Shown here: positions 5,782 to 54,822 of the stretch, piece after piece | Layout: each line of letters starts with the position of its first letter | Position numbering within the stretch: the stretch's first letter is position 1 | NCBI GenBank assembly: GCA_035277605.1 | Contig: DATEKE010000237.1 | Span: forward strand, 1-62,404 | From: Terriglobales bacterium | Lineage (GTDB): Bacteria > Acidobacteriota > Terriglobia > Terriglobales > Acidobacteriaceae | Direction: 5' to 3' | Length of the DNA: 62,404 nucleotides | Program-made: the position numbers and the translations under genes | Notes under the pieces: generated by a model | Databases searched by the model: none | Told to the model about the DNA's origin: nothing | The model's input: the letters and a program-made list of their open reading frames with translations, nothing else

Positions 5782-7707
5782 CTACGCAGCTTCGGGCTGC
5801 GGTTCGTGGTGCTTTCTGTCCGTCACAGGTGCTGCTGGTTGGAAAGAGACAGCCTGGTTGTGCTTCTCAGGCAAAAACACCTGAAAACAGGTGTAGCTGC
5901 GGCCGGGACGCGAGTCGCTGTGGACGTGAATGGTGCCATGATGCCGCTCGACGATTCCGCTGCTCACCCACAACCCTACGCCGCTGCCCTTCTCTCCCTT
6001 CGTGCTGAAGAAAGGCTCAAAGATGCGCTTGCGGACGTCTTTGGGAATTCCCGTTCCGGTATCGAGCAGCGAGATAACCACGCCATCCCGGCCCATAGCA
6101 CCTGTTTGCCGAGTACGCCGGATGTGCACCCGCAAGCCGCCACCCGCGGGCATCGCTTCCACTGCATTCACGATCAGATTGGTGAAGACTTGCCGCAGCT
6201 CAGCAGGAAATCCAGGCAACTCTCCCAGCCAATCGTAGCGACGCTCCACACGGATTTTGCTGGCGCGAATCTTGTTCCCGTAGAGCAGCAACACACCATC
6301 GAGCAGCTTGGCAGGATTCACCGGCACCATCGACGAGGATTGGCGATGCATTGCGAGCGTCTGCTGCGTGACCTCGGTCATGCGATGCAATTCCTGATCA
6401 ATGAGCTCAAGCTGCTGGCGCTCGGCGTTGCCCAGGCGGGTGCTTTGTTTGAACACGTAGAGAAGCTGGATTACAGAATCGAGTGGATTGCGCAGTTCGT
6501 GGGAAATGGTTGCCGCGATACGTCCGGTTGCAGCCATTTTCTCGCTGGCTTGCAACGCTGCTTCCGCGCGCTTGCGCTCAGAAAGATCGCGAAACATCAT
6601 CACCGCGCCGAGGGCGATTCCGTCGCTGATCACCGGCGCGGCAGTGTACTCCGCCACCAGCTTTTCGCCCGATTTCGTGATGAGCGTTTCTTCTTCCACC
6701 CAGCAGGAATGGCCTGCGTGCGTGGCATTCAGCAGGCAGCAGCCGCCTTCCGCATCACACCCGATGTGGACGAGTTCATGAAGCTGCTTGCCTCGCACCT
6801 GCTCCGATTTGTAGCCCAGCATGCGCTCTGCGGCTGCGTTCAGATATTGAATTGCGCCTGAGGTGTCGATGTAGCACACACCTTCCGTCAGACTGCCCAG
6901 TACTGCGCGAAAGTGTGACCGGACTTCCTCAGCCTGCTTTTGCGCAGTGATTTCCGAGGCCATTCCCAACATCAGGTGCGTGCCGTTTTCTTCGAAGATC
7001 TTGCCTTTGCTTGAAAGCCAACGAATGGTGCCGTCACGTTCGACGACGCGGTACTCGAGTTCGAGGCGGTGATGACGCGCAGCAGCTTCAAACAATGAAG
7101 TCAGCACCCGTTCGCGATCCTCAGCGTGAACTCTGCGATTGATGTAATCATCGATTGCAATCTCGTAGCACTGACTTCGCTCAGCGTCAGTGGCCCGGTA
7201 CTCCCCTTCGCGAGACCAGCGCAGCAGATTTGACTCCAGATCCCACTCCCAGAACCAGATGCGGGCGGCACGCCGGGCGAGTCTGAGCCGCTGATCGTGT
7301 TCCAACAACTGCAATTGTTCGCGCTGCTGGCGACGGATCACCTCGATCAGGACAATACCGAGCCCAACGTATGCGCACCAAAGCACCAGTCCCGACCGGA
7401 AATCCGCTTGCGCTGTGCTGGATCCAGGAAGCAGAAGCCACAGTCCCCCAGCGGTGATGATCAGAGCAAGCCAACCGGCAGCGTATCCCCCCACCAGTGC
7501 GCTGATGAGCAGCGCAAAGAGGCAAATCAGCCCTGCAGGTTTCTGCGCTCCGACCGGTACGGCTGCGACAAAAACGGCTGCAAGTGCCAGAGCTGCAGCA
7601 AGCACATAGCTCCAGTAAGAGCGTCCGGTGCGGAGGCGAGGCGCACGCATAAATCTCGGCCTGGCCGTGGAAGCAGACATAAAGAGGCCCGGTCGTAGTA
7701 CTTGCAA
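5782..7707 (-). CDS. Membrane-anchored PAS-PAS sensor histidine kinase
   Basis: N-terminal multi-TM region, two PAS-like segments. H-box ISHELRNPLDSV, N-box NLIVNAVEAM, G-box GSGVGLWV. The exact start is uncertain because several in-frame Met codons exist. Confidence 0.9.
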   Translation of the reverse strand: MQVLRPGLFMSASTARPRFMRAPRLRTGRSYWSYVLAAALALAAVFVAAVPVGAQKPAGLICLFALLISALVGGYAAGWLALIITAGGLWLLLPGSSTAQADFRSGLVLWCAYVGLGIVLIEVIRRQQREQLQLLEHDQRLRLARRAARIWFWEWDLESNLLRWSREGEYRATDAERSQCYEIAIDDYINRRVHAEDRERVLTSLFEAAARHHRLELEYRVVERDGTIRWLSSKGKIFEENGTHLMLGMASEITAQKQAEEVRSHFRAVLGSLTEGVCYIDTSGAIQYLNAAAERMLGYKSEQVRGKQLHELVHIGCDAEGGCCLLNATHAGHSCWVEEETLITKSGEKLVAEYTAAPVISDGIALGAVMMFRDLSERKRAEAALQASEKMAATGRIAATISHELRNPLDSVIQLLYVFKQSTRLGNAERQQLELIDQELHRMTEVTQQTLAMHRQSSSMVPVNPAKLLDGVLLLYGNKIRASKIRVERRYDWLGELPGFPAELRQVFTNLIVNAVEAMPAGGGLRVHIRRTRQTGAMGRDGVVISLLDTGTGIPKDVRKRIFEPFFSTKGEKGSGVGLWVSSGIVERHHGTIHVHSDSRPGRSYTCFQVFLPEKHNQAVSFQPAAPVTDRKHHEPQPEAA

Positions 7708-21938: not shown

Positions 21939-24806
21939 ATGGGCGTTAAGCCCAAGCCTGCGCGTGTGACCAACACGCCCGAAAATCGTCTTCCCGCGCG
22001 CGGGAAAGCGCCGAAATCCGTCGGCTTGCGCGAGACGCAACAGGCGCTGCGTGACACGGAAAACCGCTTCCGGGCATTCGTCGAGCAATCGTCGGACATG
22101 TTGTCGCTGCTCGATGAGCGCGGCACCGTCATTCACCAGAGCAAGTCGATCATCCAGCACCTCGGATATCAACCCGAAGAGACCATTGGTGTTTCTTGCT
22201 TTGATTTCGTTCATCCCGAGGACTTGGAGACGGCCATCGCCGGCTTCCGCCAAGGTCTCGAAGACCCATCTGAAGGGGAAGCAATCACCGTAAGGCTGCG
22301 ACATAAGTCCGGTTGCTGGAAGTCGTTTGAGGCCGTCAGCAGCCCTTATGTTTACCAAGGACGCAAAGCCGGACTGCTGGCCAGCTTTCGTTGTGTAAGC
22401 GACCGATTTGAAGCCGAATTGGAACTGCGACGTTCAGAGGAACGATACCGACGGCTGTTCGAGCGCAACCTTGCAGGCGTATTTAGCAGCCGATCGGGTC
22501 GCCTGCTCGACTGCAACGATTCTTTTGCTCACATCTTCGGGTATGAATCGCGCGAGCAGATGATCGCTGCCGGTGACTTCAATCCTTATTACAACCCACA
22601 ACAGCGCGCTGACTACATAGAGAAATTGAAGAAAGAACGCGCCCTTGCCAACGTTGAATTCCGTTTCCGTAAGCGCGATGGCTCGGAAGTATGGGTACTC
22701 GAAAACGTGATGCTCGAGGATGAAGGCGACGAATCCATCCTCGGCACACTGATTGACATTACCGAGCGCAAGCGTTCAGAACGCCTGCAGAGCGCGTTGT
22801 ATTCCATTAGTGATTGCGTCAATTCTGTGGTCGACCTGGAACAGCTTTATCCGGCGTTACACAAAATTGTCGGCGAGTTGATGTACGCAAATAATCTTTA
22901 CATCGCATTGCTCGATAAAAGTGGCGAGCGGCTGCATTTTCCCTACTTCGTCGATGAAGGCGATCCCCCGCCGGTGAGCCGGAGATTAGGAAACGGCCTT
23001 ACCGAGTACGTGCTCCGGAGCGGGAAACCTCTGCTCGCCGACTTCGCGAAAATCCGTCACCTTGAAACTCAGTGTGAAATCGAAGCCATCGGGCGTGATT
23101 GCGTCGACTGGCTAGGAGTTCCTCTGCGGCATGGCAACAAAGTATTCGGCGTAATTGCCCTGCAGAGCTACGATCCGAAGATCCGGCACAGCGACCACGA
23201 CCGCGACATCCTCACTTACGCCTCGCAACACATCTCGGTTGCACTCGTGCGGAAGCAGCAGGAAGAGGCACTGCGCGCCTCCGAGGCTCGGCATCGTTCG
23301 CTCGTCGAGAGCGCAGTCTATGGAATGTATCGCTCCAGCATAGATGGCAAGTTCCTCGACGTGAATCCCGCGCTTGTGAAAATGCTGGGCTATTCCTCTG
23401 CGGAGGAGCTGATGAGTGTCGACATGGCTCGCGACATCTATCTAGATTCCGATCAGAGAGCAGCGGTGATTCACGCCTACCGCGAGTCTGGTTGCCTGGA
23501 AAGCTGCGAGCTGCGCTGGAAACGTAAAGATGGGAGGTCCATCACAGTCCGGCTAAGCGGAAACGTCTTCAAGAATGAACACGGCGAGCCGCTCGGCTTC
23601 GAGATGATCGCAGAAGACGTGAGCGAGCGTCGCGCGCTGGAGGAGCAGCTTCGCCAGTCGCAGAAGATGGAGGCAATTGGACGACTCGCCGGCGGCATTG
23701 CGCACGACTTCAATAACCTGCTTACCGTTATGAAAGGCTACAGCGAGCTGATGCTCGACGAGCTCGACACGGCCGATCCTTTGCGCACCGAAGTGGACGA
23801 AATCAAGAAAGCCGCCGATCGCGCGGCTGCGCTAACCCGGCAACTTCTCGCCTTCAGCCGCCAACAGGTGCTCGCGCCAAAGGTTCTCGATTTGAACTCC
23901 GTAGTCGGGAACATGGATAAGCTCCTTCGCCGTCTGCTCGGCGAGGATATTGACCTGTTTACGGTGCTCGAGCCAGGGCTGGCCCGGGTAAAAGCTGATC
24001 CCGGACAAGTCGAGCAGGTCATCATGAACCTGGCTGTCAATGCGCGTGATGCCATGCCGAATGGCGGCAAGCTCACCATTGAGACCGCGAATGTCGATTT
24101 GGACGAAAACTACATACGCGATCACGCTTCCGTGAAGCCGGGTACCTACGTAATGGTTGCCGTGACCGACACCGGAACGGGAATGACCGACAAAGTGCAG
24201 TCGCGTATCTTTGAGCCGTTCTTCACGACAAAAGAGATCGGCAAGGGCACGGGCCTTGGACTGTCAACTGTGTACGGCATCATCAAGCAGAGCGGCGGCT
24301 ACATCTGGGTTTATTCCGAACTGGGAATCGGTTCGACATTCAAAGTCTACTTGCCCGCACTAGACGCCCCAGCGGAACTTCCTGCTTGCACCACCCTACC
24401 GCCAGCCCGCCGAGGCAGCGAAACCGTTCTGCTGGTTGAAGACGAGGATGGCGTCCGCGCTCTCATGCGGCAGGTTCTGCATAAGCATGGATACAACGTT
24501 CTTGAATCCCGTCATGGCGGCGAAGCATTGCTGATGTGCGAGCGCCATTCCGGGAAAATCGATCTGCTACTTACCGATGTCGTGCTGGAGCAGATGAGCG
24601 GACGCGAACTGGCCGAGCGCTTGATCAAGGTACGTCCGGAGATGAAGGTCTTATACGTCTCCGGCTACGCCGATGACGCCATAGTCCACCATGGGGTCCT
24701 GAATGCCGGGGTCGCGTTCCTGCAAAAGCCATTCACAACCGAGGCGTTGGCTCGGAAGATCAGATACGTTCTGGATGGCGTAGCCCGCGCGGCCTCCCAA
24801 AGCTGA
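21939..24806 (+). CDS. Hybrid sensor histidine kinase (PAS-PAS-GAF-PAS-HisKA-HATPase_c-REC)
   Basis: 955 aa, no TM segment seen. H-box IAHDFNNLLTVM, N-box NLAVNARDAMPNGG, G-box GTGLGLSTVYG. C-terminal receiver VLLVEDEDGVR...LLLTDVVL. Confidence 0.92.
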   Translation: MGVKPKPARVTNTPENRLPARGKAPKSVGLRETQQALRDTENRFRAFVEQSSDMLSLLDERGTVIHQSKSIIQHLGYQPEETIGVSCFDFVHPEDLETAIAGFRQGLEDPSEGEAITVRLRHKSGCWKSFEAVSSPYVYQGRKAGLLASFRCVSDRFEAELELRRSEERYRRLFERNLAGVFSSRSGRLLDCNDSFAHIFGYESREQMIAAGDFNPYYNPQQRADYIEKLKKERALANVEFRFRKRDGSEVWVLENVMLEDEGDESILGTLIDITERKRSERLQSALYSISDCVNSVVDLEQLYPALHKIVGELMYANNLYIALLDKSGERLHFPYFVDEGDPPPVSRRLGNGLTEYVLRSGKPLLADFAKIRHLETQCEIEAIGRDCVDWLGVPLRHGNKVFGVIALQSYDPKIRHSDHDRDILTYASQHISVALVRKQQEEALRASEARHRSLVESAVYGMYRSSIDGKFLDVNPALVKMLGYSSAEELMSVDMARDIYLDSDQRAAVIHAYRESGCLESCELRWKRKDGRSITVRLSGNVFKNEHGEPLGFEMIAEDVSERRALEEQLRQSQKMEAIGRLAGGIAHDFNNLLTVMKGYSELMLDELDTADPLRTEVDEIKKAADRAAALTRQLLAFSRQQVLAPKVLDLNSVVGNMDKLLRRLLGEDIDLFTVLEPGLARVKADPGQVEQVIMNLAVNARDAMPNGGKLTIETANVDLDENYIRDHASVKPGTYVMVAVTDTGTGMTDKVQSRIFEPFFTTKEIGKGTGLGLSTVYGIIKQSGGYIWVYSELGIGSTFKVYLPALDAPAELPACTTLPPARRGSETVLLVEDEDGVRALMRQVLHKHGYNVLESRHGGEALLMCERHSGKIDLLLTDVVLEQMSGRELAERLIKVRPEMKVLYVSGYADDAIVHHGVLNAGVAFLQKPFTTEALARKIRYVLDGVARAASQS

Positions 24807-25042
24807 CTGTTCGCTTTTGCCTTCTTTCATTTCAGATTCGAACACCTGACCTACTTTGTTTCATCTGTAAATTCTTGTAACCTCTTCAATCATTGAGAGA
24901 TATTGCCGGACGTTCCGATGCGACTCGACTCCGAACGATGGAATTGGGCTTGCTCATTGCAGAGAGAGGACCGCTCGCAATATCGAACTTCCGGTTCCTT
25001 CGGATACGTCCATTGTCTTCCCTGCTCAAATCGGAGATTGCA

Positions 25043-26221
25043 GTGACCGATAGCTCTTATCCCTCATCTTTTGGCGCCGGAGTTGGCGTCGCGGCGCGGC
25101 CCAAGCGCGTGCTCGTGGCCGACGATCAGGCCGACGTCTTGCACGCCATTGCTCTTCTCTTAAAACTCGAGGGATTTGAGTCGCAAACGGTCAGTCATCC
25201 TGCGGCCGTGATGGAAGCACTCAACTCCGGCGAGTTCGATTTGCTCATCACCGATTTGAACTACACACTGGATACCACTTCAGGAACCGAGGGTCTCGAT
25301 CTGATATCGAGCATTCGCAAGATCAACGCGAACGTTCCCGTTTTGGTCATTACCGCCTGGGGCACGATCGAACTGGCCGTGGAAGCATTGCAGCGCGGAG
25401 CGTCGGATTTCATCCAGAAGCCCTGGACCAATTCTCAGCTCATTCAAAAATCGCGCGATCTCATTGAGCGTGCCGAGCAGGCTCGCCGCCTGAGCGCCGA
25501 AGCCGAGGAAGAACAACAAGTTTCGGCTGAAATTCAGCGCAAGCTTCTCTCGCTGCGTTTACCGGAGCAGCACGGCATCACCGTGAGCGGCGACTCGCGT
25601 TCAATGCGCTACGTTGGCGGAGATTATTGCCATCTTACGCCGCTTACGTCTTCGAAGTTCTCTGTGTCTATTGCCGATGTCGCAGGTAAGGGAGTTCCGG
25701 GCGCCCTGCTCACAGCCAGCTTGCGCGGACTCGAGAAAAGCATTGTCACACACGATGTTCATCCGCAGCAGCTCTGCAGCTCGCTAAACGAAGCGCTGAG
25801 CGAGATCATGCCAATTGGCAAGTTTGTATCGTTCTTCTTCGGAATCATCGACACGGAAACGCGCACTCTCTGCTACAGCAACGCTGGACACAATCCTCCA
25901 ATTCTCGTGCACGCAGATGGAACCGCTCAGGAGCTTCGCGTTGGAGGAGGCGTTCTCGGCCTGTTTTCCGAATGGACGTACGAGCAGACGCAGCTAAAGC
26001 TTGAAAGAGGCGATCGATTGATCCTTTATACCGACGGCATCACGGAAGTGGAGAGCCGTCACGACGAAGAATTCGGCATGCAACGCGTGAAAGACATCGT
26101 CGTGAGAAATCGCACGGCTTCCGCCGAAGAGATTCAGCGTGCCGTAATGAAGGCCGTAAGCGCTCATTGTGAAGAACGCTTCCACGACGACGCAACGGTC
26201 GTTGTGATTGCGGTACAGTAG
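25043..26221 (+). CDS. Response regulator with a PP2C/SpoIIE phosphatase output (RsbU-like)
   Basis: REC (RVLVADDQADVL...LLITDLNY) followed by a SpoIIE-type domain (GGDYCHL..., ADVAGKGVPGAL, YSNAGHNPP, LYTDGITE). Start moved to GTG 25043 with GGAG 7 nt upstream. Confidence 0.88.
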   Translation: MTDSSYPSSFGAGVGVAARPKRVLVADDQADVLHAIALLLKLEGFESQTVSHPAAVMEALNSGEFDLLITDLNYTLDTTSGTEGLDLISSIRKINANVPVLVITAWGTIELAVEALQRGASDFIQKPWTNSQLIQKSRDLIERAEQARRLSAEAEEEQQVSAEIQRKLLSLRLPEQHGITVSGDSRSMRYVGGDYCHLTPLTSSKFSVSIADVAGKGVPGALLTASLRGLEKSIVTHDVHPQQLCSSLNEALSEIMPIGKFVSFFFGIIDTETRTLCYSNAGHNPPILVHADGTAQELRVGGGVLGLFSEWTYEQTQLKLERGDRLILYTDGITEVESRHDEEFGMQRVKDIVVRNRTASAEEIQRAVMKAVSAHCEERFHDDATVVVIAVQ

Positions 26222-34916: not shown

Positions 34917-35684
34917 TTATCCTTCGAGCAGACATCGTTGCAGCTCCGCCTTCCGCTCCGGGAGGCGGAGTTCTTTCAGCAGTTCGTAGATTACGGGCCG
35001 GGGGAGCGTTCGCGCGACTTGCATGACGATCGCTTCGGGAGCCTCCGGCCGGCGTAGAACAGCGAGCTGAATCTCTCGTCGCAGTGACCACTTGGTGTGC
35101 TCGACAACAATTTCGATCAGCGTACCCGCGCTCTCTGCAGCGCTGACGGCTTTCACAATGCCAGCTTCAGTCATACGCGGATTCTGCAGCGCGGCTTCGA
35201 TCACCGTGCGCTCACTCTGAAGCAGCAATGCGCTTGCTATGCCTGCCGACGCACGACGCGCCATGTTGATGCGTTCGCCGAGAGAAATGGCTTCGAGCTT
35301 GTCGATCAGCAGTTGCTCAGCCACGAGCTTCAGATCGGCCGCTGCGGTTGGAGACAAAGCGACGTCCATCAGCTCGAATGCAAATAGGCGGCGCAGCACT
35401 GGAAGAGCGACATGACGAGGAACCCGCACATGCTGCACGAGCTTCAGCAACGTTTTTCGGCTCTTAATCGCAACCGGGTTGCGAGCTAATGCTTCGAACG
35501 CCGTGGGAGGAAGGTCGTTGCGGTGCAGCAAGCCTAAAGCCTGGTCCTCCTCAAGGCCTGCATGGCTGGCGGCCACCAGCAAATCCTCTGGGAAGACGCT
35601 CGCAATCAGTTCCGCCAGCGCAGCCGATGGGCGCGACACCGACAGCGGTTGTGCTTTGCCCTGAGCTGTGCCGAATCCGGTCAT
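34917..35684 (-). CDS. Hypothetical all-helical repeat protein (255 aa)
   Basis: Coding-like composition. Repeated about 30-aa helical segments (..ALARNPVAIKS.., ..AALQNPRMTEAGIV.., ..LRRPEAPEAIV..). No family recognised. Confidence 0.6.
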   Translation of the reverse strand: MTGFGTAQGKAQPLSVSRPSAALAELIASVFPEDLLVAASHAGLEEDQALGLLHRNDLPPTAFEALARNPVAIKSRKTLLKLVQHVRVPRHVALPVLRRLFAFELMDVALSPTAAADLKLVAEQLLIDKLEAISLGERINMARRASAGIASALLLQSERTVIEAALQNPRMTEAGIVKAVSAAESAGTLIEIVVEHTKWSLRREIQLAVLRRPEAPEAIVMQVARTLPRPVIYELLKELRLPERKAELQRCLLEG

Positions 35685-35728: not shown

Positions 35729-36631
35729 TTACGCTTGGCTGCGCGCCATTGCCAGCGCTCCCATAACGGGATGCACCGGCTCAAGATTCACTTCGATACC
35801 GCGGCGCTCGGCGCGAATGGCGTTCGAAAACATCTGCCGTATCTGTGCGGAATGCGCAAAGACGCCTCCGGTAAGCGCAATCGGAATTTTCCCGTCTTCG
35901 TTCCACAATTTCCGGACCACGATGCGAGCAAGCTGTGCCAATTCGTTGGCAGCCGATGACAGAATCTCCCGCGCGAGCGCATCACCGGCGTCGGCGCATT
36001 GGAGAACCGCAGGAAGAAGCGCGGCAAAATCGGGTGGAGGATTGGAATTTGCCATCGCCACCACCTCTTCCCTGCCGCTCAACCGCCAAGCCTGCATGAT
36101 CGCAGACAGCAGTTCGGTTGAGCGTCCCGCATCGTGCGCTCTCATCGATTGCGCGACCGCCGTCCTACCAATCCAGAACCCGGAACCTTCGTCAGAAATG
36201 ATCGGACCCCATCCTCCGGCTCGCGCGCTCTCTCCCCGCTCGTTGATCCCCAAAACGTTCGAACCGGTTCCGGCAATCACCAGCACTCCAGGTCCGCCAT
36301 TAAAGGCAGCATGATGCGCGATCGTGGTGTCGTTCACCAGGATCAGTTCCCCACCCACGAGTTGCGTCAGTGTGGCGCGAGTCCACTGGGTCACTTCGGG
36401 AATACTGGAGCCGGCCAACCCGATGCATGTGCGGGAAAATTGGTCAGGCCTGATATTGGCCTGCCTGCATGCGACATTAATTGCGGACTGCAGAGCCTCA
36501 GCGGCAGCTTTGTTTCCGACCTTCTTGATTTTGATGGTGCTGCCGACCGCCGACGCGAGCACACTGCGCTCGTCGCCGATTACGCATTCAGTTTTTGTAC
36601 CGCCACCGTCAATCGCGAGAAAGTAGGACAC
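35729..36631 (-). CDS. BadF/BadG/BcrA/BcrD-type ATPase (N-acetylglucosamine kinase-like)
   Basis: LAIDGGGTKTE phosphate-1 motif, VLVIAGTGSN, ISDEGSGFWIG. Confidence 0.85.
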   Translation of the reverse strand: MSYFLAIDGGGTKTECVIGDERSVLASAVGSTIKIKKVGNKAAAEALQSAINVACRQANIRPDQFSRTCIGLAGSSIPEVTQWTRATLTQLVGGELILVNDTTIAHHAAFNGGPGVLVIAGTGSNVLGINERGESARAGGWGPIISDEGSGFWIGRTAVAQSMRAHDAGRSTELLSAIMQAWRLSGREEVVAMANSNPPPDFAALLPAVLQCADAGDALAREILSSAANELAQLARIVVRKLWNEDGKIPIALTGGVFAHSAQIRQMFSNAIRAERRGIEVNLEPVHPVMGALAMARSQA

Positions 36632-36939
36632 GAATTAGTTGTATCACAAGTGCTCTATAGCTCTTACCGACCGATTCCACGGCTGAAGGCCGAAGGTACA
36701 AGCAGTGTCGATCCATTGCGGCATTGTCCAGCATCTGCCAGAGTTTGGCGGAGTAATATGTCAGCGGCAGAGTAATCCACGTCATAGTTACAGAGATGGA
36801 GTTTTCTCCTCAATTTGCGCCTAAGTTCGCCTGCCCGACCCAAGCGTTGTGATTTCCTATTGATTTCCATCCCAGACTGGGTGATGATGCGCTTACCTAC
36901 CCCCACCCAGATCTTAACTACTCGATTACGAGAGCGAGC

Positions 36940-37167
36940 ATGAAAGATATCTATGAAGTAATCCGTCAAAAAGAGGCTGATCTGCAGCGCATCCAGCATG
37001 AGATTGAAGCTCTGCGGATCAGTGCCAAGCTGCTGGAAGAGGTCGGACGCCCCGTTTCTGCCACGCCGGTGCAGGTATTCAGCGCCGCGGCAGGGGCCAA
37101 ACCGCAAACTTCCACGCAGCCGGCGCCCTCTGCCAATGCGTGGGCAACAGCCAAGCAATTTCCGTAG
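36940..37167 (+). CDS. Small hypothetical protein (75 aa): coiled-coil N-half, Pro/Ala/Gln-rich C-half
   Basis: Coding-like codon usage. Ends 15 nt before the next gene. No family recognised. Confidence 0.5.
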   Translation: MKDIYEVIRQKEADLQRIQHEIEALRISAKLLEEVGRPVSATPVQVFSAAAGAKPQTSTQPAPSANAWATAKQFP

Positions 37168-37182
37168 ACCGCGAGACGTTGA

Positions 37183-39060
37183 ATGGCCACATCTGCCGAA
37201 GCAGCACATCTTCCCGATCTCAAGAACGAACGTCGCAGCGCCTGGCGAAAGGCTGTGCCGGCGCGCAGCCGTATTGAGCTCTCTCCGGGCCACGGCGCCT
37301 CGGCTCGCGACATCAGCGAAGGCGGCGTAAGCCTGTTTGGAAGGGCAGATCTGGATGTCGGCAGCGAGACCCAACTGCGCTTTATCCTGCCCGGTTCCGA
37401 CACGCAGATCGAAGCCTCAGGCGTAGTCGCCTGGAGTGACGAGCTGGCAACCGGCATCCGTTTCATACACATCAACATCGACTCGCTCACCGCACTTCAG
37501 AGCTGGCTCGAGAGCTCGCCTGAGCACGAGGACGACTCCGCGAACCTGCGCGCCGACGCGGTACTGGCAGCCAAAGTCGCCTGCCTGCGTGAGATCGCCG
37601 ATCTTCAGGCGCAGATCTCCTCCAACGATCTCGATTCCGATGCCGCTCTCGCGCTGATCGTGCGCCGTCTCGCCGAACTCACACGCGCGACTGGGTCTGC
37701 CATCGCCTTGCGCGATGGGCAACAAGTAGTCTGCCGTGCGTCATACGGCAATGCGCCCGATGTGGGCGTGCAGCTCTCGCAATCATCGCTCTCCGGCGAG
37801 TGCTTGCGCACTGCCAACGTCGTCTTGTTGCGCGATTCAGAAACCGATCCGCGAGTAGATGCCGCTATCTGTCGTCAGCTGAATTTCCGTTCGCTGCTCA
37901 TTGTTCCGGTGCTCTCCAATGGAAAGCCGGCCGGAATCGCCGAAGTGCTCTCTGCCAATCCGGGAAATTTCGAAGGCACCGACATTCTCGTAGTCAGCTT
38001 CATCGCCGACCTTATCGCCGGCGTCGCGGTGCCTGCAGAGCAGAGCGAAGCTGCGCCTGTTGAGCGCCGTACCAGCTTCGATCCATTGGTTGAGCCCGAT
38101 CTGCCGACTCCGCAAATCGCGATGGAGGTCCCGATTCCCGCGGCTCCCGTCGCAACTCCGGTCCCAGTAGTGAGAGAAGTTCAGCCCGCGATTGCGCATG
38201 CGCGAGAGGTCTCGATTCCTGCGCCGATGTCGATGCCGGTTCGATCCATACCGGCATCTTCGACCGCATCCGCTCCGCAACCCGCGCGCCCTACGGTGCC
38301 GGCCCATGCGCCCGAATTTCACGAGGAAACACATCCGATCACCCCTGCTACGGATCAGCAGCGGCGGGTATATTTCGCCATAGCTCTGGTCGCGATTCTG
38401 CTGATTGTGATTGCGACATTCACGATCATGCGCCTCCGCAAGCCTGCGCAAAGCCCGCGGCTTGCGCCCAGCACAACTGCCACGACAACTTTAGGCCCTG
38501 CGACATCAGCAATCACGCAACCCACGTCAACTGTGGTGGTGGAAGCTCCTAAGAGCGAGCCGAAGAAACCCAGCCCTGCTCCAACCCACTCAGCCAAGAT
38601 CTCCTCAGATTCCCATAATGAACCAGCAACACAGGAGGTCGCCGTTCGCGAGACCACGCAGACACCCTCCCCCAGCGATGCTCCACCCCCCGCGCCTTCT
38701 CTCGGCCAACTCTCAGCCGCATCGTCTGCGAATCTGGCCGCCGCGATCGTCGCCACCAACACCCCAACGCCTGGGCTGACACTGCCCCAATCGCGCGGCG
38801 TAATTGAAGGAAAACTGATCCGGAAGGTACTGCCACAGTATCCCGAAATGGCACGACGTGCCGGCGTAGGCGGCGATATTGTCCTGAGCGCCACGATCGG
38901 CACCGACGGAAAGCTGAAGAACATTCGCGTCGTCAGTGGCAGCCCATTGCTACGGGAAGCAGCCGTCTCGGCAGCTAAGCAATGGCGCTATTCCCCATAT
39001 CTGCTGGGTGGAAAGCCCGTCGAAACCGATACCCATATCACCATCAGTTTCAAGCATTAA
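37183..39060 (+). CDS. PilZ-GAF-TM-(Pro-rich spacer)-TonB_C multidomain protein
   Basis: PilZ motifs RRSAWR and DISEGG. GAF-like segment (ATGSAIALRDGQQVVCRASYG...LIVPVLSNGKPAGIAEVLS). TM helix VYFAIALVAILLIVIATFTIM. C-terminal TonB_C (LPQYPEMARRAGVGGDIVLSATIGTDGKLKNIRVVSG...AKQWRYSPY). Confidence 0.85.
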   Translation: MATSAEAAHLPDLKNERRSAWRKAVPARSRIELSPGHGASARDISEGGVSLFGRADLDVGSETQLRFILPGSDTQIEASGVVAWSDELATGIRFIHINIDSLTALQSWLESSPEHEDDSANLRADAVLAAKVACLREIADLQAQISSNDLDSDAALALIVRRLAELTRATGSAIALRDGQQVVCRASYGNAPDVGVQLSQSSLSGECLRTANVVLLRDSETDPRVDAAICRQLNFRSLLIVPVLSNGKPAGIAEVLSANPGNFEGTDILVVSFIADLIAGVAVPAEQSEAAPVERRTSFDPLVEPDLPTPQIAMEVPIPAAPVATPVPVVREVQPAIAHAREVSIPAPMSMPVRSIPASSTASAPQPARPTVPAHAPEFHEETHPITPATDQQRRVYFAIALVAILLIVIATFTIMRLRKPAQSPRLAPSTTATTTLGPATSAITQPTSTVVVEAPKSEPKKPSPAPTHSAKISSDSHNEPATQEVAVRETTQTPSPSDAPPPAPSLGQLSAASSANLAAAIVATNTPTPGLTLPQSRGVIEGKLIRKVLPQYPEMARRAGVGGDIVLSATIGTDGKLKNIRVVSGSPLLREAAVSAAKQWRYSPYLLGGKPVETDTHITISFKH

Positions 39061-50087: not shown

Positions 50088-51233
50088 TCAGTGCGGAAGG
50101 GGCGGAGGAGCGCTGGACATCTGCGGTGCGAGAAGCTCATCTGCTCTTTCATCGGCCCGCTTGTGGATGGACACGACCGTCGCGAACTCCTTATCGGCTT
50201 CGGCTTTCTTTCCAGTCGCTTGAAAGATTCGCCCCAGGCGGTAGTGCGCATCCGGCTGCGACGGATCGAGCTGAACTGCACGCTTGAGTGCTGCGATCGC
50301 CTCGTCGTATTTCTTCTGCTCGTTGTACACGACACCAAGATCGATGTAGGCAAACCGAATGTCGTTCTTCAGAGCGACGGCTTTCTTGAGCAACTCGATT
50401 GCCGCGTCAGGATTTTTGTTCTTCATCTCAATGTCGCCGAGGTAGGCAATCGCCTGTGCGTTCTTCGGATCGACGTCCAGTTCATTTTGGAACTCGGCTT
50501 TGGCTTCCTCATACTTGTGCGATTTCCAATAGAGATAGCCCAGCCCAAAATGGACATTGGGCTCGCGCGGTGAAACGCGCGCTGCCGTTTTAAATTCTGC
50601 GAGCGCGTCGGGCGTGCGACTCAGACCATCAAGCGCTTCGCCCATCAGCATGTGCGCAGCAGCGGAGTCAGGCTGCGTCTGGAGGATGCGTCTGAAACCA
50701 TCGAGGGCGCACGAATATCTCTTAGCCCAAAGGCAACTCTGGGCCAGCATCTGCTGAAGTTCAGGGTTGTCGGGATCGGCCTTCGCTGCGATCTGAAGAT
50801 GGTCTGCGGCCTTAGCGAAGTCCTTCGCGCCGTAATAGCTCAATCCCAGCAAAATTCGCGCTTGCTCGTTGTTTGAGTCTGCCTCAAGGGCTGTGGTTAG
50901 AGGCGAAACAGCGGCACGAAAGTTCCCAAGCTTAAACTCCGCCAACCCCAGGTTCATTTGAATGCCGGGGAGTTTCGGATTCAGTTTCAGTGCCCGCCGA
51001 TATGCCGATGCCGCCTCGGAGTACTTCTGCTCGCGCGCAAGATCCACACCCATACTGGCGAATGCAGCCGCGTCCGCCGGATTCCTCTCGGTTACGGATT
51101 GCCACACCTGAACCGCCTCGCCCCATTTTCCCTGCTGCTCAAAGGCAATCGCGTCACTCGGACTGGCATTCTGGGCATAGGCTGCCGCGCAAAGGACCAA
51201 TCCTGGAAAGAACTTGAGAAAAGGTGAGCGCAT
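50088..51233 (-). CDS. Secreted tetratricopeptide-repeat (TPR) protein
   Basis: Signal peptide (FPGLVLCAAAYAQ) and about 9 TPR-like 34-aa repeats (...A...Y..AL.L.P...). Confidence 0.85.
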   Translation of the reverse strand: MRSPFLKFFPGLVLCAAAYAQNASPSDAIAFEQQGKWGEAVQVWQSVTERNPADAAAFASMGVDLAREQKYSEAASAYRRALKLNPKLPGIQMNLGLAEFKLGNFRAAVSPLTTALEADSNNEQARILLGLSYYGAKDFAKAADHLQIAAKADPDNPELQQMLAQSCLWAKRYSCALDGFRRILQTQPDSAAAHMLMGEALDGLSRTPDALAEFKTAARVSPREPNVHFGLGYLYWKSHKYEEAKAEFQNELDVDPKNAQAIAYLGDIEMKNKNPDAAIELLKKAVALKNDIRFAYIDLGVVYNEQKKYDEAIAALKRAVQLDPSQPDAHYRLGRIFQATGKKAEADKEFATVVSIHKRADERADELLAPQMSSAPPPLPH

Positions 51234-51369: not shown

Positions 51370-54300
51370 CTAAAAGACTAGCTTCGCTCCAAGTTGGAAT
51401 ACTCTCGGATCGAACGTTGACGTGACCTGGCCAAACGTACTCGAAGTGGTGCTGGAATCGACGTTTCTAAACTGCGTGTGATTCCAGACGTTGAAGGCAT
51501 CGGCTCGGAACTGGAACATGCTCCCGCGTGACTCGCTGAACACAAAGTTCTTGAAGAAGGAGAGATTCCAGTTGTCGCGTCCCGGACCCCTGAGGGCATC
51601 GAAACCGAGATTGCCCCATGTGCCTGCCGCAGGAGTGCCGAACGCATTGGTAGTGAACCACTGCGTCGCGGTTTGCGGATAGCTAACCGTGCCGGTAAGG
51701 TTCGGGCGATTGGTGCAGGTCCCCAATGGAATATTGCAAACGCTGTTGCTTCCGCCGACCGTGACGTTCAGCGGCAGTCCAGATTCCATTGTGACAATCC
51801 CGGACAGCTCCCACCCTCCAAGAGCAGTCTTGAGAAGTCCCTTATCGCTGTTCTTCAGGAATGGAAGCTGGTAATCGAAGTTAAAGAAAACTACGTGAGT
51901 TCTGTCCAGGATCGAAGGCCCTAAATCGTACTTCCATCCAAGGTATGGGTTCGATACGTTTGCCAGATCACCGCCGCTGCCGCCGGTGGTCGGATCGACG
52001 GAGCGCGCAAGCGTATAGCCGACCTGAAGCATCAAATCACTCCTCACGTTCCCGTGTACATCAACTTGGAGCGAGTTGTAGTGACCATTTGCCTCGTTTT
52101 CCGAAAGCTTCAGGTTACGGAAACCCTGGAAGGGCAGCAACGTGTTATACGCGTTATTGTTCGCCTGCAAACTGGGAAGCAGGCTTATGTTCGGCAAATT
52201 GATGTCCCGGTAGTCGTTCTGATGACGTGACTGGCTGCCCACATACGAAGCAGCCAAGACCGCTTTGCTGCCCAACGCATGCTGCATTCCGAAACTGTAC
52301 TGATACGTCACCGGAGCTTTGTAGTCGTCTTTGGCGATACCTGTAATGCTGGGTACCACAATCGGTAGCCCCGCGATAGCGTTTCCAGATTGGATATTCG
52401 TCTTTGGATTGGAGAGGAATACGTTGTTCAAACCGGCGCTGGCACTGAACGGGACGTTTGTACCGCCGTTGTACATGTCGTTGCCTTGTACGCGCTCATA
52501 CATCGCTCCGAAGCCGCCGCGCAGCACCGTAGTTCCCTTGCCGGTTAGATCGTAGGCGAATCCAACGCGAGGACCGAACTCAGCCCAGTGATCAGCCACC
52601 ATTCCTTTCGGAACACCAGCCTGACCGGCAATTCCAATGCCGTTCAGATAGAACTGAACGCCCTGCAGGATCGGATTCGGACTGGTTCCCAAACCGGGAC
52701 TTGCTGCAGCACAGCCCGTGGGATTGCCCGGCCCGGCACAAATCTGCGTCCCATTCGCATTGGCAAACAAGGGCGCCTTTGACGGGTCGTAGAGATTGGG
52801 ATAGAAGTTCGACATGCGATTGTTGGCTTCATACGTGTGCGGAGCACCATCCCAACGAAGTCCCAAGTTCAGGGTCAGGCGACTCGTCGTCCTCCAGTTG
52901 TCCTGAACGTAAGCAGCCCAGGAGACGTTGTTCCAATAGCCATTGTCGTGTACCGCATCTTCCGAGTAGGAGTTCGAGTACCCCAGCAGGAAATCGGCAA
53001 AGTCATTTCCCGTGTAGGAGCCGTTGAACTGAAAATTACCCTGCGTTGACGCAAATACATCCTGAATCTTCTTGTAAAGCGCCCAACTCCCGCCATACTT
53101 CACAGAGTGTTTGCCGGACGACCAGGAGACATCATCGCGAATCTGATAGTCATCGGCCTTATTTACCCATGGCTCCCAAGAGACCGTGGCGTTAGTTCCG
53201 GTCGAGCCACTCAACTGAATTGATGGAATTCGGTTAAGCGCGTTCGGACCTGGAAAGACGCGGTTGAAAACAAACCCTGACGGGGCCGTAAAAGCCCCCT
53301 TAGGAGTGATGTTGATGCGATTGCCGTTGTAGTTAAACGCGATTTCGTTCAGCAGATGCGGATTGATCATATGCGTCGCGTGAACGACAGCGCTGTACGA
53401 AGGATTGTTAAAAGTGTTGCTGATTGTCGGAACGTTGTCACCGCTCCATTGTGTGGTGCCGAATCCTTGCGAAATCTGCTCTGCGACAAAGTGGCCAAAG
53501 ATCTGGAACTTGTCACTGAAATTGTGATCAACGCGGGTAATTTCTTCCCTCACGTTCGTCGGGACGTTGTTACCTCCGATGAACTGATTACCGCTGGTCG
53601 GAGCCGGGAAAATTCCAGCTTTCAGCAGAAGCTGCGCGTTCGCATCGAGTAATGCGGCCGGAATGGTGTTCTGAGGAAACGGTTGTCCCGGTGTTAGTCC
53701 GAGCGACGCATACTTCGCCTGCAGTGCCGGTGAGAGTTGGCTGGCGGAGGGCACGTTGATCGTGGTTGGGAACACGCCCCCATACGTACTCGTCAAAGGT
53801 ACCGTCTGCTTCAAGGTTTGACCTTGAATCAGGCTGCGCCATTCCATGTTATAGAAGAAAAATGTCTTATTGTGATCGCTGTTGTACAGCTTGCCGAGAG
53901 TTACGGGACCGCCAACATTAAAACCGTAGGTGTTGAAGCGTAGCTTGGCAACAGGACTAGGCTGCCTGTTGAAGTAGGTGCGGGCATCCAGGGCGTCGTT
54001 GCGGTCGTACTCCCAAGCCGAGGCGTGCAGTTTCTTGGTTCCGGATTTAAGAACCGTAGTCATCGTTGCGGCCGATGACAAGCCATACTCGGCGCTATAG
54101 TTCGAAGTCAGAATGCGGAACTCAGACATGGACTCCAGAGAGGGCATCACGCTGAAGTTGCCTGAGCCTCCGCGATCAAGATCTTCGCCGCCGTCCATTA
54201 GATAAATGTTGTGGCCCATGCGCTGACCGTTGAAGCTGACGTTCGCATCGCCGCCGACTGGAGTTGGCGTTTGGAAGTCTCCCTGGTTTCCGGAAGCTCC

Positions 54301-54822
54301 TGGCGTGAGATTGATTAGCGTGTAGATGCTGCGGCCGTTGGTCGCGAGCTGCGAAATCTGCCGACCGGTTATGACATCGCTGACCTCACTCGATTCTGAC
54401 TGTACCTGCACCGCGGTAGCTTCCACAGTAACTTTTTCCTGCGCGGCGCCAACCTGGAGTTGGAAGTCGAGACGAGCACGGTCGTTCACATTCAGAACGA
54501 TGTTCTTTGAAAGCTGTTTGAATCCGCCCGACTCGACCTGCACGGTGTAGCTCCCGATCGGCAGAGCCGGAGCCACATATTGACCATCGTTATTGCTGCT
54601 GAAGCGGCGGCTTTGTCCTGTATCCGTTTTGGTGACGGTGATAGTTGCGTTTGGAACCGCAGCTCCGGTGGGATCCGTTACACTTCCCACAATGGTCGCG
54701 TCCTGCGCAAATACTGGTGTGGCGAATATTCCAACAAGGACGAAAAGCATGGCAGCGAGGCGGATGCTATTTCGTCTCACGCACTGGGCTAACCTCTCTA
54801 TGTTTCTTGGCGAAAGCTTCAT
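51370..54822 (-). CDS. TonB-dependent outer-membrane receptor with an N-terminal carboxypeptidase-regulatory-like domain
   Basis: 1150 aa. Signal peptide, CarboxypepD_reg segment (TIVGSVTDPTGAAVPNATITVTKTDTGQ...YTVQVESGGF), plug and long beta-barrel ending in the aromatic residue ...GAKLVF. Confidence 0.92.
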   Translation of the reverse strand: MKLSPRNIERLAQCVRRNSIRLAAMLFVLVGIFATPVFAQDATIVGSVTDPTGAAVPNATITVTKTDTGQSRRFSSNNDGQYVAPALPIGSYTVQVESGGFKQLSKNIVLNVNDRARLDFQLQVGAAQEKVTVEATAVQVQSESSEVSDVITGRQISQLATNGRSIYTLINLTPGASGNQGDFQTPTPVGGDANVSFNGQRMGHNIYLMDGGEDLDRGGSGNFSVMPSLESMSEFRILTSNYSAEYGLSSAATMTTVLKSGTKKLHASAWEYDRNDALDARTYFNRQPSPVAKLRFNTYGFNVGGPVTLGKLYNSDHNKTFFFYNMEWRSLIQGQTLKQTVPLTSTYGGVFPTTINVPSASQLSPALQAKYASLGLTPGQPFPQNTIPAALLDANAQLLLKAGIFPAPTSGNQFIGGNNVPTNVREEITRVDHNFSDKFQIFGHFVAEQISQGFGTTQWSGDNVPTISNTFNNPSYSAVVHATHMINPHLLNEIAFNYNGNRINITPKGAFTAPSGFVFNRVFPGPNALNRIPSIQLSGSTGTNATVSWEPWVNKADDYQIRDDVSWSSGKHSVKYGGSWALYKKIQDVFASTQGNFQFNGSYTGNDFADFLLGYSNSYSEDAVHDNGYWNNVSWAAYVQDNWRTTSRLTLNLGLRWDGAPHTYEANNRMSNFYPNLYDPSKAPLFANANGTQICAGPGNPTGCAAASPGLGTSPNPILQGVQFYLNGIGIAGQAGVPKGMVADHWAEFGPRVGFAYDLTGKGTTVLRGGFGAMYERVQGNDMYNGGTNVPFSASAGLNNVFLSNPKTNIQSGNAIAGLPIVVPSITGIAKDDYKAPVTYQYSFGMQHALGSKAVLAASYVGSQSRHQNDYRDINLPNISLLPSLQANNNAYNTLLPFQGFRNLKLSENEANGHYNSLQVDVHGNVRSDLMLQVGYTLARSVDPTTGGSGGDLANVSNPYLGWKYDLGPSILDRTHVVFFNFDYQLPFLKNSDKGLLKTALGGWELSGIVTMESGLPLNVTVGGSNSVCNIPLGTCTNRPNLTGTVSYPQTATQWFTTNAFGTPAAGTWGNLGFDALRGPGRDNWNLSFFKNFVFSESRGSMFQFRADAFNVWNHTQFRNVDSSTTSSTFGQVTSTFDPRVFQLGAKLVF

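Follow-up and report, generated by a model that had tools for sequence, protein, structure and literature searches.

The DNA analyzed here is a 62,404-nucleotide (nt) stretch, referred to at its full length as the window, from a Terriglobales bacterium of the Acidobacteriota (GenBank assembly GCA_035277605.1, contig DATEKE010000237.1; G+C content, ~57%). Within it, two same-strand genes encode a 75-amino-acid (aa) protein and a 625-aa protein in which PilZ, GAF, transmembrane (TM), and TonB_C segments follow one another (Table 1). The open reading frame (ORF) for the 625-aa protein begins with ATG, is directly preceded by a TGA stop codon, and lies 15 nt downstream of the small ORF. The two ORFs share a reading frame by chance; since two stop codons stand between them and the frame relation is not kept in homologs, read-through is not implied.

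A preliminary description, made from the sequence alone, had placed the end of the 75-aa ORF 15 nt upstream of the large gene and called the two genes probably cotranscribed. The coordinates were confirmed, and a strict sigma-70 and terminator scan around the gene pair, which returned nothing meaningful, found no terminator-like site between the two ORFs. A promoter-like block upstream of the small ORF, TTG(A/C)TT-N16-T(A/G)ATGATGCGC, was missed by the strict consensus scan and became visible only when the homologous upstream regions of the window and three related loci (L001, L003, and L005) were aligned. This block is a candidate promoter and, together with the lack of a terminator-like site between the genes, is consistent with a two-gene operon. 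An Rfam search of the whole window gave no match, so no cyclic di-GMP (c-di-GMP) riboswitch or other known RNA was found.

Table 1. Coordinates of the gene pair, the segments of the 625-aa protein, and other features of the window
Feature	Positions	Strand	Basis or remarks
Promoter-like motif	36860..36889	+	TTGATT (36860-36865), 16 nt, TGATGA (36882-36887), then conserved TGCGC
Small partner gene, 75 aa	36940..37167	+	ORF
PilZ-GAF-TM-TonB_C gene, 625 aa	37183..39060 (including stop codon)	+	ORF, Pfam, NCBIfam, AlphaFold2 (AF2)
PilZ domain, aa 16-110	37228..37512	+	Pfam PF07238, AF2 beta-barrel
RxxxR motif, aa 18-22	37234-37248	+	Within RRSAWR (17-22)
DxSxxG motif, aa 43-48	37309-37326	+	DISEGG
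Long helix joining PilZ to GAF, aa 119-147	37537..37623	+	AF2 secondary structure
GAF domain, aa 150-282	37630..38028	+	Pfam GAF_2; C184, C207, C230 conserved
Cytoplasmic disordered linker, ~aa 287-388	38041..38346	+	Predicted local distance difference test score (pLDDT) <50; Pro 21%, Ala 16%
Single TM helix, aa 396-416	38368..38430	+	Hydropathy 2.93; AF2 helix 389-418
Periplasmic disordered linker, aa 421-540	38443..38802	+	pLDDT <50 (425-537); Pro 17%, Ala 16%, Thr 15%, Ser 14%
TonB_C domain, aa 541-625, PQYP motif	38803..39057	+	Pfam PF03544, AF2 pLDDT ~95
Gene for BadF/BadG-type ATPase	35729..36631	-	Divergent from small gene; syntenic in closer relatives
255-aa ORF	34917..35684	-	No Pfam family; adjoins BadF/BadG-type ATPase gene; 249-259 aa in L001, L003, L005
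Stand-alone PilZ gene, 112 aa	5352..5690	-	E 1.1e-12; beside PAS histidine kinase (5782..7707)
Stand-alone PilZ gene, 143 aa	30716..31147	-	E 8.6e-14
CarboxypepD_reg + OMP_b-brl_4 outer-membrane barrel, 1150 aa	51370..54822	-	E 6e-200
TPR protein gene adjoining barrel gene	50088..51233	-	

Domains of the 625-aa protein

The N-terminal domain matched PilZ family PF07238 with an E value of 4e-12 (46.8 bits against a cutoff of 22.5), covering profile positions 1 to 101 of 102. An AF2 model of the whole protein, built on an 81-sequence family alignment, places seven strands between residues 22 and 97 and a C-terminal helix at residues 99 to 110, with pLDDT values of 84 to 95. In alignments with the PilZ domain of Alg44 (PDB 4xrn and 4rt0; E values of 4e-4 to 7e-4), the RxxxR and DxSxxG motifs fall on its c-di-GMP-binding motifs. 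Conservation was measured on 71 full-length members of the protein family described below; R18 and R22 are invariant in 71/71, G48 is likewise invariant, position 43 is D or E, and position 45 is S or G. By profile, motifs, and modeled fold, this PilZ domain is predicted to bind c-di-GMP.

The PilZ domain is joined by a long helix to a GAF domain that scored above threshold with both GAF_2 (PF13185; residues 150 to 279, E = 4.8e-14, 53.2 bits against a cutoff of 28.6) and GAF (PF01590; 41.5 bits against 22.4). By analogy with other GAF proteins, the joining helix is a possible dimerization or signaling helix. Within the family, the GAF domain ranks second in conservation, and its three cysteines are kept in nearly all members (C184 in 71/71, C207 in 70/71, and C230 in 66/71). 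A Foldseek search gave 433 PDB matches at an E value of ≤1e-3, all of the GAF type. At the domain level the best of these were the PtsP GAF domain (3ci6) and a type II free methionine-(R)-sulfoxide reductase (fRMsr; 4mmn), with TM-scores of 0.79 to 0.81; the full-length model returned generic GAF matches only and nothing on PilZ-GAF packing.

The nearest GAF folds are those of fRMsr/MsrC and PtsP. In marginal PDB phmmer alignments (E = 0.017 for 3mmh and 0.2 for 4mmn), C230 falls on the catalytic cysteine and the RS-x-(I/L)-VP motif of fRMsr. Unlike fRMsr, the GAF domain here sits in a membrane protein, and the acidic substrate-binding residues are replaced: the Glu of SEIVVP is lost in SLLIVP, and the second Asp of DxDS is lost in EVLS. 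BLASTP gave no significant match between the GAF domain and an approximate E. coli fRMsr sequence. The conserved cysteines and the position of C230 offer a lead toward thiol-redox or small-ligand sensing.

The rest of the protein consists of one TM helix between two disordered linkers, followed by the TonB_C domain. The TM helix (VYFAIALVAILLIVIATFTIM, residues 396 to 416) contains no His and no S/T-xxx-Q/E/H/N pattern. Across the family its position is kept and its sequence is not (mean identity, 26%); the S/T-x3-Q/E/H/N pattern occurs in the TM helix of 0/71 members, and His occurs in one member only. The linkers vary in length, from 72 to 181 aa on the cytoplasmic side and from 118 to 274 aa on the periplasmic side. 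The C-terminal domain matched PF03544 over residues 551 to 624 (E = 1.4e-19; 70.7 bits against a cutoff of 24.6), the NCBIfam tonB_Cterm model TIGR01352 (2.1e-11; 44 bits), and TonB2 in the PDB (2k9k; E = 3.7e-10). No other part of the protein is as well conserved across the family (mean pairwise identity, 64%), which implies that its binding partner is conserved too. The positive-inside rule does not discriminate, with 2.6 K/R on one side of the TM helix and 2.5 on the other, and the topology therefore rests on domain logic. On this logic, the 625-aa product is a bitopic inner-membrane protein with PilZ-GAF in the cytoplasm and TonB_C in the periplasm.

These results bear out most of what the preliminary description had said of the protein. 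It had read the order as PilZ, a GAF-like domain, a Pro-rich stretch, a TM helix, a spacer, and a C-terminal TonB_C domain, with both c-di-GMP motifs intact and no SxxxH in the single TM helix. Pfam and AF2 agree on this order, and the PilZ, GAF, and TonB_C matches all lie above their gathering thresholds. Two lengths had to be corrected. The spacer between the TM helix and TonB_C, put at ~170 aa, measures ~120 to 130 aa (residues 421 to 540), and the cytoplasmic part, for which ~300 sensor residues had been given, comprises ~395, made up of 285 residues of folded sensor and a Pro/Ala-rich disordered linker of ~105.

A Terriglobales-specific family and its small partner gene

Ninety-five clusters were recovered from 5.8 billion proteins; about 70 of them share the PilZ, GAF, and TonB_C annotation, and their identities range from 100% to 27%. 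When residues 1 to 290 were searched exhaustively with HMMER against 1.84 billion representatives at 50% identity, 130 proteins reached an E value of ≤1e-30. TonB_C ends were present in 87 of the 136 new representatives listed; the remainder were mostly fragments, with a few PilZ-GAF-TM-Sel1 proteins. All family clusters came from metagenomes or metagenome-assembled genomes (MAGs), and the names they bear are "TonB family protein" or "hypothetical." Every named family member, distant clusters included, belongs to the Terriglobales (Acidobacteriota). A contig scan with the family alignment, keyed on a pattern inside TonB_C, recovered mostly other TonB_C proteins and one further family locus, L011. 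These data establish PilZ-GAF-TonB_C as a conserved, Terriglobales-specific family, about 100 clusters strong at 50% identity, rather than a one-off fusion.

The small gene accompanies this family closely. A homologous ORF of 60 to 78 aa lies upstream on the same strand in 8/8 family loci examined (the window, L001/L002, L003/L004, L005, L006, L011, L088, and L089, counted as independent loci), at a distance of 19 to 60 nt in the homologs. The large proteins of these loci are 31 to 55% identical to the window protein where full length was measured; those of L088 and L089 are 37 to 38% identical to it over the PilZ-GAF region. The small gene is the only neighbor conserved in all eight loci, and all other neighbors differ in L006, L088, and L089, the distant loci whose neighbors were compared (those of L011 were not annotated). 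Its product has a heptad-patterned helix at residues 4 to 36 (AF2 pLDDT, 87 to 97) followed by a disordered Pro/Ala/Ser tail. The C terminus is conserved as WA(S/T)AKQFP, and 117 of 120 homologs end in KQFP. The small-protein family comprises 289 homologous clusters; Pfam and NCBIfam assign it to no family, and its sequence had no significant match in the PDB. No small-protein match occurred in loci encoding GAF-TonB_C proteins without PilZ (L007, L008, and L024) or PilZ-GAF-Sel1 proteins (L090 to L092). The small ORF is thus a real gene, and its product, coiled-coil/Pro-Ala-rich in the preliminary description, is more exactly one helix followed by a disordered tail. That description understated a gene that is the one strictly conserved partner of the family.

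Several related architectures were seen in the same searches. In P0090, P0302, and P0345 (loci L090 to L092), a TM helix links the PilZ-GAF module to Sel1 repeats, and in L091 and L092 a radical-SAM gene follows. P0091 is a fusion of a related GAF domain with AMIN and Amidase_3, an N-acetylmuramoyl-L-alanine amidase. TonB_C is also found on BlaR1/M56-type sensor proteins in Acidobacteriota (P0095).

Other Terriglobia TonB_C proteins, of 590 to 950 aa, place their TM helix 260 to 680 residues from the N terminus. Such proteins with long N termini are encoded at L021:1276-3138, L022:10382-12271, L042:8861-10831, and L066:8654-10417 and also at L015:8225-10420, L031:2166-4037, and L052:7436-10276. 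Four have weak Response_reg-like N termini below the Pfam threshold, and the others have no recognizable N-terminal domain. Tandem pairs of proteins of this type occur in L022, L026, and L035. Their layout suggests a broader acidobacterial class of proteins that run from a cytoplasmic signaling domain through a TM helix to TonB_C.

Comparison with TonB and possible modes of action

Canonical TonB has a short cytoplasmic tail and a TM helix in which an SxxxH motif couples to ExbB/ExbD. The canonical TonB of Terriglobia is ~245 aa long and is directly followed by exbB-exbD-exbD in 43 loci recovered by the contig scan (L014 to L087; e.g., L016:9539-12317). It has a highly conserved N terminus (MFEDSLIESGG...) and a run of 10 to 12 prolines. 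Its TM helix carries S-x3-Q/E in 26/32 sequences and has an identity of 64%, versus 79% for its own C-terminal domain. The S-x3-Q/E pattern is this clade's counterpart of the E. coli SxxxH, so that a missing SxxxH is, by itself, a weak argument in Acidobacteriota.

The 625-aa protein shares with canonical TonB a TM helix, a Pro-containing periplasmic arm, and a TonB_C domain with PQYP. Its TonB_C domain is 45 to 53% identical to the C-terminal domain of Terriglobia housekeeping TonB and, judged by this identity, is a close paralog of it. Unlike TonB, which has ~20 cytoplasmic residues, it has ~395, and it has neither SxxxH nor SxxxQ/E, weak TM conservation, no poly-Pro rod, and no adjacent exbBD. 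The preliminary description had reported no exbB/exbD in the window; this held in a phmmer search for ExbB, ExbD, TolQ, and TolR homologs, with E. coli seeds that detected 127 ORFs in other loci, and in a Pfam scan of all large window ORFs. Nor was exbB, exbD, tolQ, or tolR present within 8 to 10 kb in nine homologous loci. The NCBIfam full-length TonB model NF008082 gave 37.1 bits against a 265-bit cutoff, with a weak alignment over residues 392 to 604, and the TolA equivalog model was rejected by a wide margin. The protein thus lacks two defining features of an energy transducer, a short N terminus with a motif-bearing TM helix and an association with exbBD, yet carries a bona fide TonB_C domain.

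Two proteins of the Agl-Glt gliding machinery of Myxococcus xanthus, GltJ (AgmX) and GltG, have a similar build: a cytoplasmic part (ZnR-GYF in GltJ and FHA in GltG), a TM helix, a disordered arm, and TonB_C (PMC11135422, PMC11761067). In these proteins, cytoplasmic signaling controls the assembly of an envelope-spanning complex, and the TonB_C-like end docks a periplasmic or outer-membrane (OM) partner (PMC11135422, PMC11761067). The order of parts is the same as in the 625-aa protein, and the layout is closer to it than that of a classical energy transducer. The cytoplasmic domains, however, are unrelated to PilZ-GAF, the input there is MglA-GTP/AglZ and not c-di-GMP, and the phylum is another. 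Pfam found no ZnR, GYF, or FHA domain in the 625-aa protein, and no agl/glt or TolQR-like motor genes were found near its gene by window phmmer or by Pfam of the neighbors. The NCBIfam GltJ model NF033761 scored 13.5 bits against a 450-bit cutoff (E = 0.029), the match coming from the low-complexity linker.

For the PilZ end, the comparison is with Alg44, the Pseudomonas alginate copolymerase, a c-di-GMP receptor that exerts inside-out control over an envelope process. Alg44 likewise starts with a cytoplasmic PilZ domain whose RxxxR and DxSxxG motifs align, crosses the membrane once, and has a protein-interaction domain in the periplasm. This periplasmic domain has a membrane-fusion-protein fold rather than TonB_C; Alg44 lacks both GAF and long disordered linkers, and its gene is part of the alg operon.

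We tentatively favor, while not quite expecting it to be right, the reading in which the 625-aa protein acts as an inside-out, envelope-spanning adaptor responsive to c-di-GMP and to a redox or ligand cue, not as an ExbBD-energized transducer. The cytoplasmic PilZ-GAF part, which probably dimerizes via the helix that joins the two domains, would bind c-di-GMP and a second cue, perhaps thiol redox or a small ligand. This binding, together with the small partner protein, would alter how the 625-aa protein oligomerizes, where it is located, or which partners it binds. On the periplasmic side, the flexible arm would bring TonB_C to a TonB-box-like strand of an OM protein, which may be a TonB-dependent-type barrel or another OM complex, and this partner would be tethered, clustered, occupied, or released according to the c-di-GMP level.

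Both linkers are disordered and vary in length and sequence, which makes it unlikely that a conformational change is passed rigidly through the membrane. Taken with an unconstrained TM helix, a constrained TonB_C domain, and a strictly coupled small gene, the disordered linkers favor a tether or adaptor. The same is favored by the joining of PilZ-GAF to Sel1 repeats, another nonenzymatic, protein-binding output, and is supported by the fusion of a related GAF domain to AMIN and Amidase_3 and by the other Terriglobia TonB_C proteins with long cytoplasmic N termini, some of them receiver-like. The preliminary description had left two options, a TonB gated by c-di-GMP and a GAF ligand or a c-di-GMP-controlled envelope tether. 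The weak TM helix without the clade motif, the disordered linkers, and the absence of exbBD from nine loci lean toward the tether and away from the gated TonB, although the close kinship of TonB_C with housekeeping TonB speaks for the latter.

Several points weigh against the adaptor. In other bacteria, TonB paralogs commonly lack neighboring exbBD genes and are served by ExbBD in trans. The requirements on the TM helix for ExbB docking are poorly defined outside E. coli, and weak TM conservation is no proof of uncoupling. Some family members have Gly in place of the DxSxxG serine, so binding of c-di-GMP is not certain for all members. The absence of the small gene from the PilZ-GAF-Sel1 and GAF-TonB_C loci (three each) may reflect phylogeny. 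The small product is a cytoplasmic protein made up of a single helix and a flexible tail with KQFP at its end, and its role in the module is one that we infer. Finally, the TM helix of GltG is reported to contact the AglR motor, so the closest analog may itself be motor coupled (PMC11135422, PMC11761067).

Unlikely, but a serious contender, is a specialized TonB paralog in which ExbB-ExbD encoded elsewhere would energize a subset of receptors, its activity or abundance being switched by c-di-GMP and the GAF cue. The identity of its TonB_C domain to that of same-clade housekeeping TonB, with PQYP kept, argues for this, as do a TonB-like TM-linker-TonB_C geometry and arm length, the weak alignment of the NCBIfam full-length TonB model, and the fact that the organism encodes large TonB-dependent-type barrels, such as the one at 51370..54822. 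The clade motif SxxxQ/E is missing from a poorly conserved TM helix, however, there is no exbBD near the gene in the window or in the nine loci, and direct gating of a motor is hard to picture across a disordered linker of ~105 aa between sensor and membrane.

Signaling might also run from outside to inside, with TonB_C detecting TonB boxes on ligand-loaded OM receptors, or peptidoglycan, and the small helical protein serving as the output; PilZ-GAF would integrate c-di-GMP and release or sequester the small protein, as in a partner switch. The strict coupling of the small protein to the gene, its docking-like C-terminal KQFP peptide, and the occurrence of TonB_C on BlaR1/M56-type sensors in Acidobacteriota fit this scheme, which we nonetheless regard as improbable as a whole: two disordered linkers and an unconserved TM helix leave no obvious path for a transmembrane signal, and the small protein has no recognizable effector or DNA-binding domain. 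Most improbable is a decoy or competitor, in which a nonenergized TonB_C domain would occupy TonB boxes at a given c-di-GMP level and so lower TonB-dependent uptake; a close TonB_C paralog without motor-coupling features would suit it, but nothing points to control of abundance or accessibility, and an elaborate sensor and partner gene in a conserved family seem excessive for competition.

Genomic surroundings and significance

The genes around the pair vary across the family. The BadF/BadG-type ATPase and the adjoining 255-aa protein were considered as obligatory partners and rejected, since they are syntenic only in the window and L001 to L005 and are absent in L006, L088, and L089. Directly upstream of the ATPase gene, a conserved block of ~19 nt, G-A(A/C)TTAGTT(C/G)TA(T/C)CAC (36632..36650), is present here and in L001, L003, and L005; it may be the 5' leader or ribosome-binding region of that gene. 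With 37183..39060 counted, the window holds three PilZ genes in 62 kb, and it has no GGDEF/EAL gene. In L001, L003, and L005, a single-domain PilZ gene of 126 to 143 aa is found 3 to 4 kb away from the family gene, a synteny that is lost in distant members.

Barrels with CarboxypepD_reg and OMP_b-brl_4 domains are a TonB-dependent-type receptor class typical of Acidobacteria. Beyond the barrel gene of the window lie genes for LacI-type regulators (55295 and 56647), a GH3 glycosidase (57709), and an FGGY sugar kinase (60181). This group of genes looks like a polysaccharide-utilization-like cluster, and it holds a possible type of TonB_C client. Elsewhere, at 21939..26221 (+ strand), two successive genes encode a PAS-PAS-GAF-HisKA-HATPase-REC hybrid kinase (955 aa) and then a REC-SpoIIE (PP2C) phosphatase (442 aa), which look like a partner-switch-type signaling pair.

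PilZ proteins are the main c-di-GMP receptors, with flagellar brakes, polysaccharide synthases, pili, and transcription as known outputs. Full-text literature searches found no description of a PilZ-TonB_C or PilZ-GAF-TonB_C protein, and neither TonB nor GAF comes up in Galperin and Chou's survey of PilZ-related domains. The individual domains are all known, and the arrangement of a cytoplasmic domain, a TM helix, and TonB_C has precedents; what is new is a putative, lineage-specific effector family with a small partner protein. The small gene represents a conserved, unannotated small-protein family of 289 clusters. The two-gene module is compact and open to expression and binding assays, although all known carriers are uncultured MAGs.

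Acidobacteria, and with them the Terriglobales, are among the most abundant soil bacteria, and to our knowledge their signaling is almost unstudied. A TonB_C output would add OM docking or transport to the outputs of PilZ proteins. Together with GltJ, GltG, and the receiver-like-TM-TonB_C proteins, the family would present TonB_C as a general periplasmic "hand" of cytoplasmic signaling domains, not only a part of energy transduction. That c-di-GMP and a thiol-redox or small-ligand cue, read by the Cys-bearing GAF domain, directly control a TonB-type contact with OM receptors in Terriglobales is, in our estimate, rather unlikely. If true, it would be a second-messenger switch acting on TonB-dependent uptake or another OM machine through a dedicated TonB paralog and its KQFP-tailed partner; PilZ effectors would gain a new class, and c-di-GMP would for the first time be linked directly to the TonB system. 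Such a link, if real, would be a notable addition to both fields, and the module may connect the "settle or swim" signal carried by c-di-GMP to the outer membrane.

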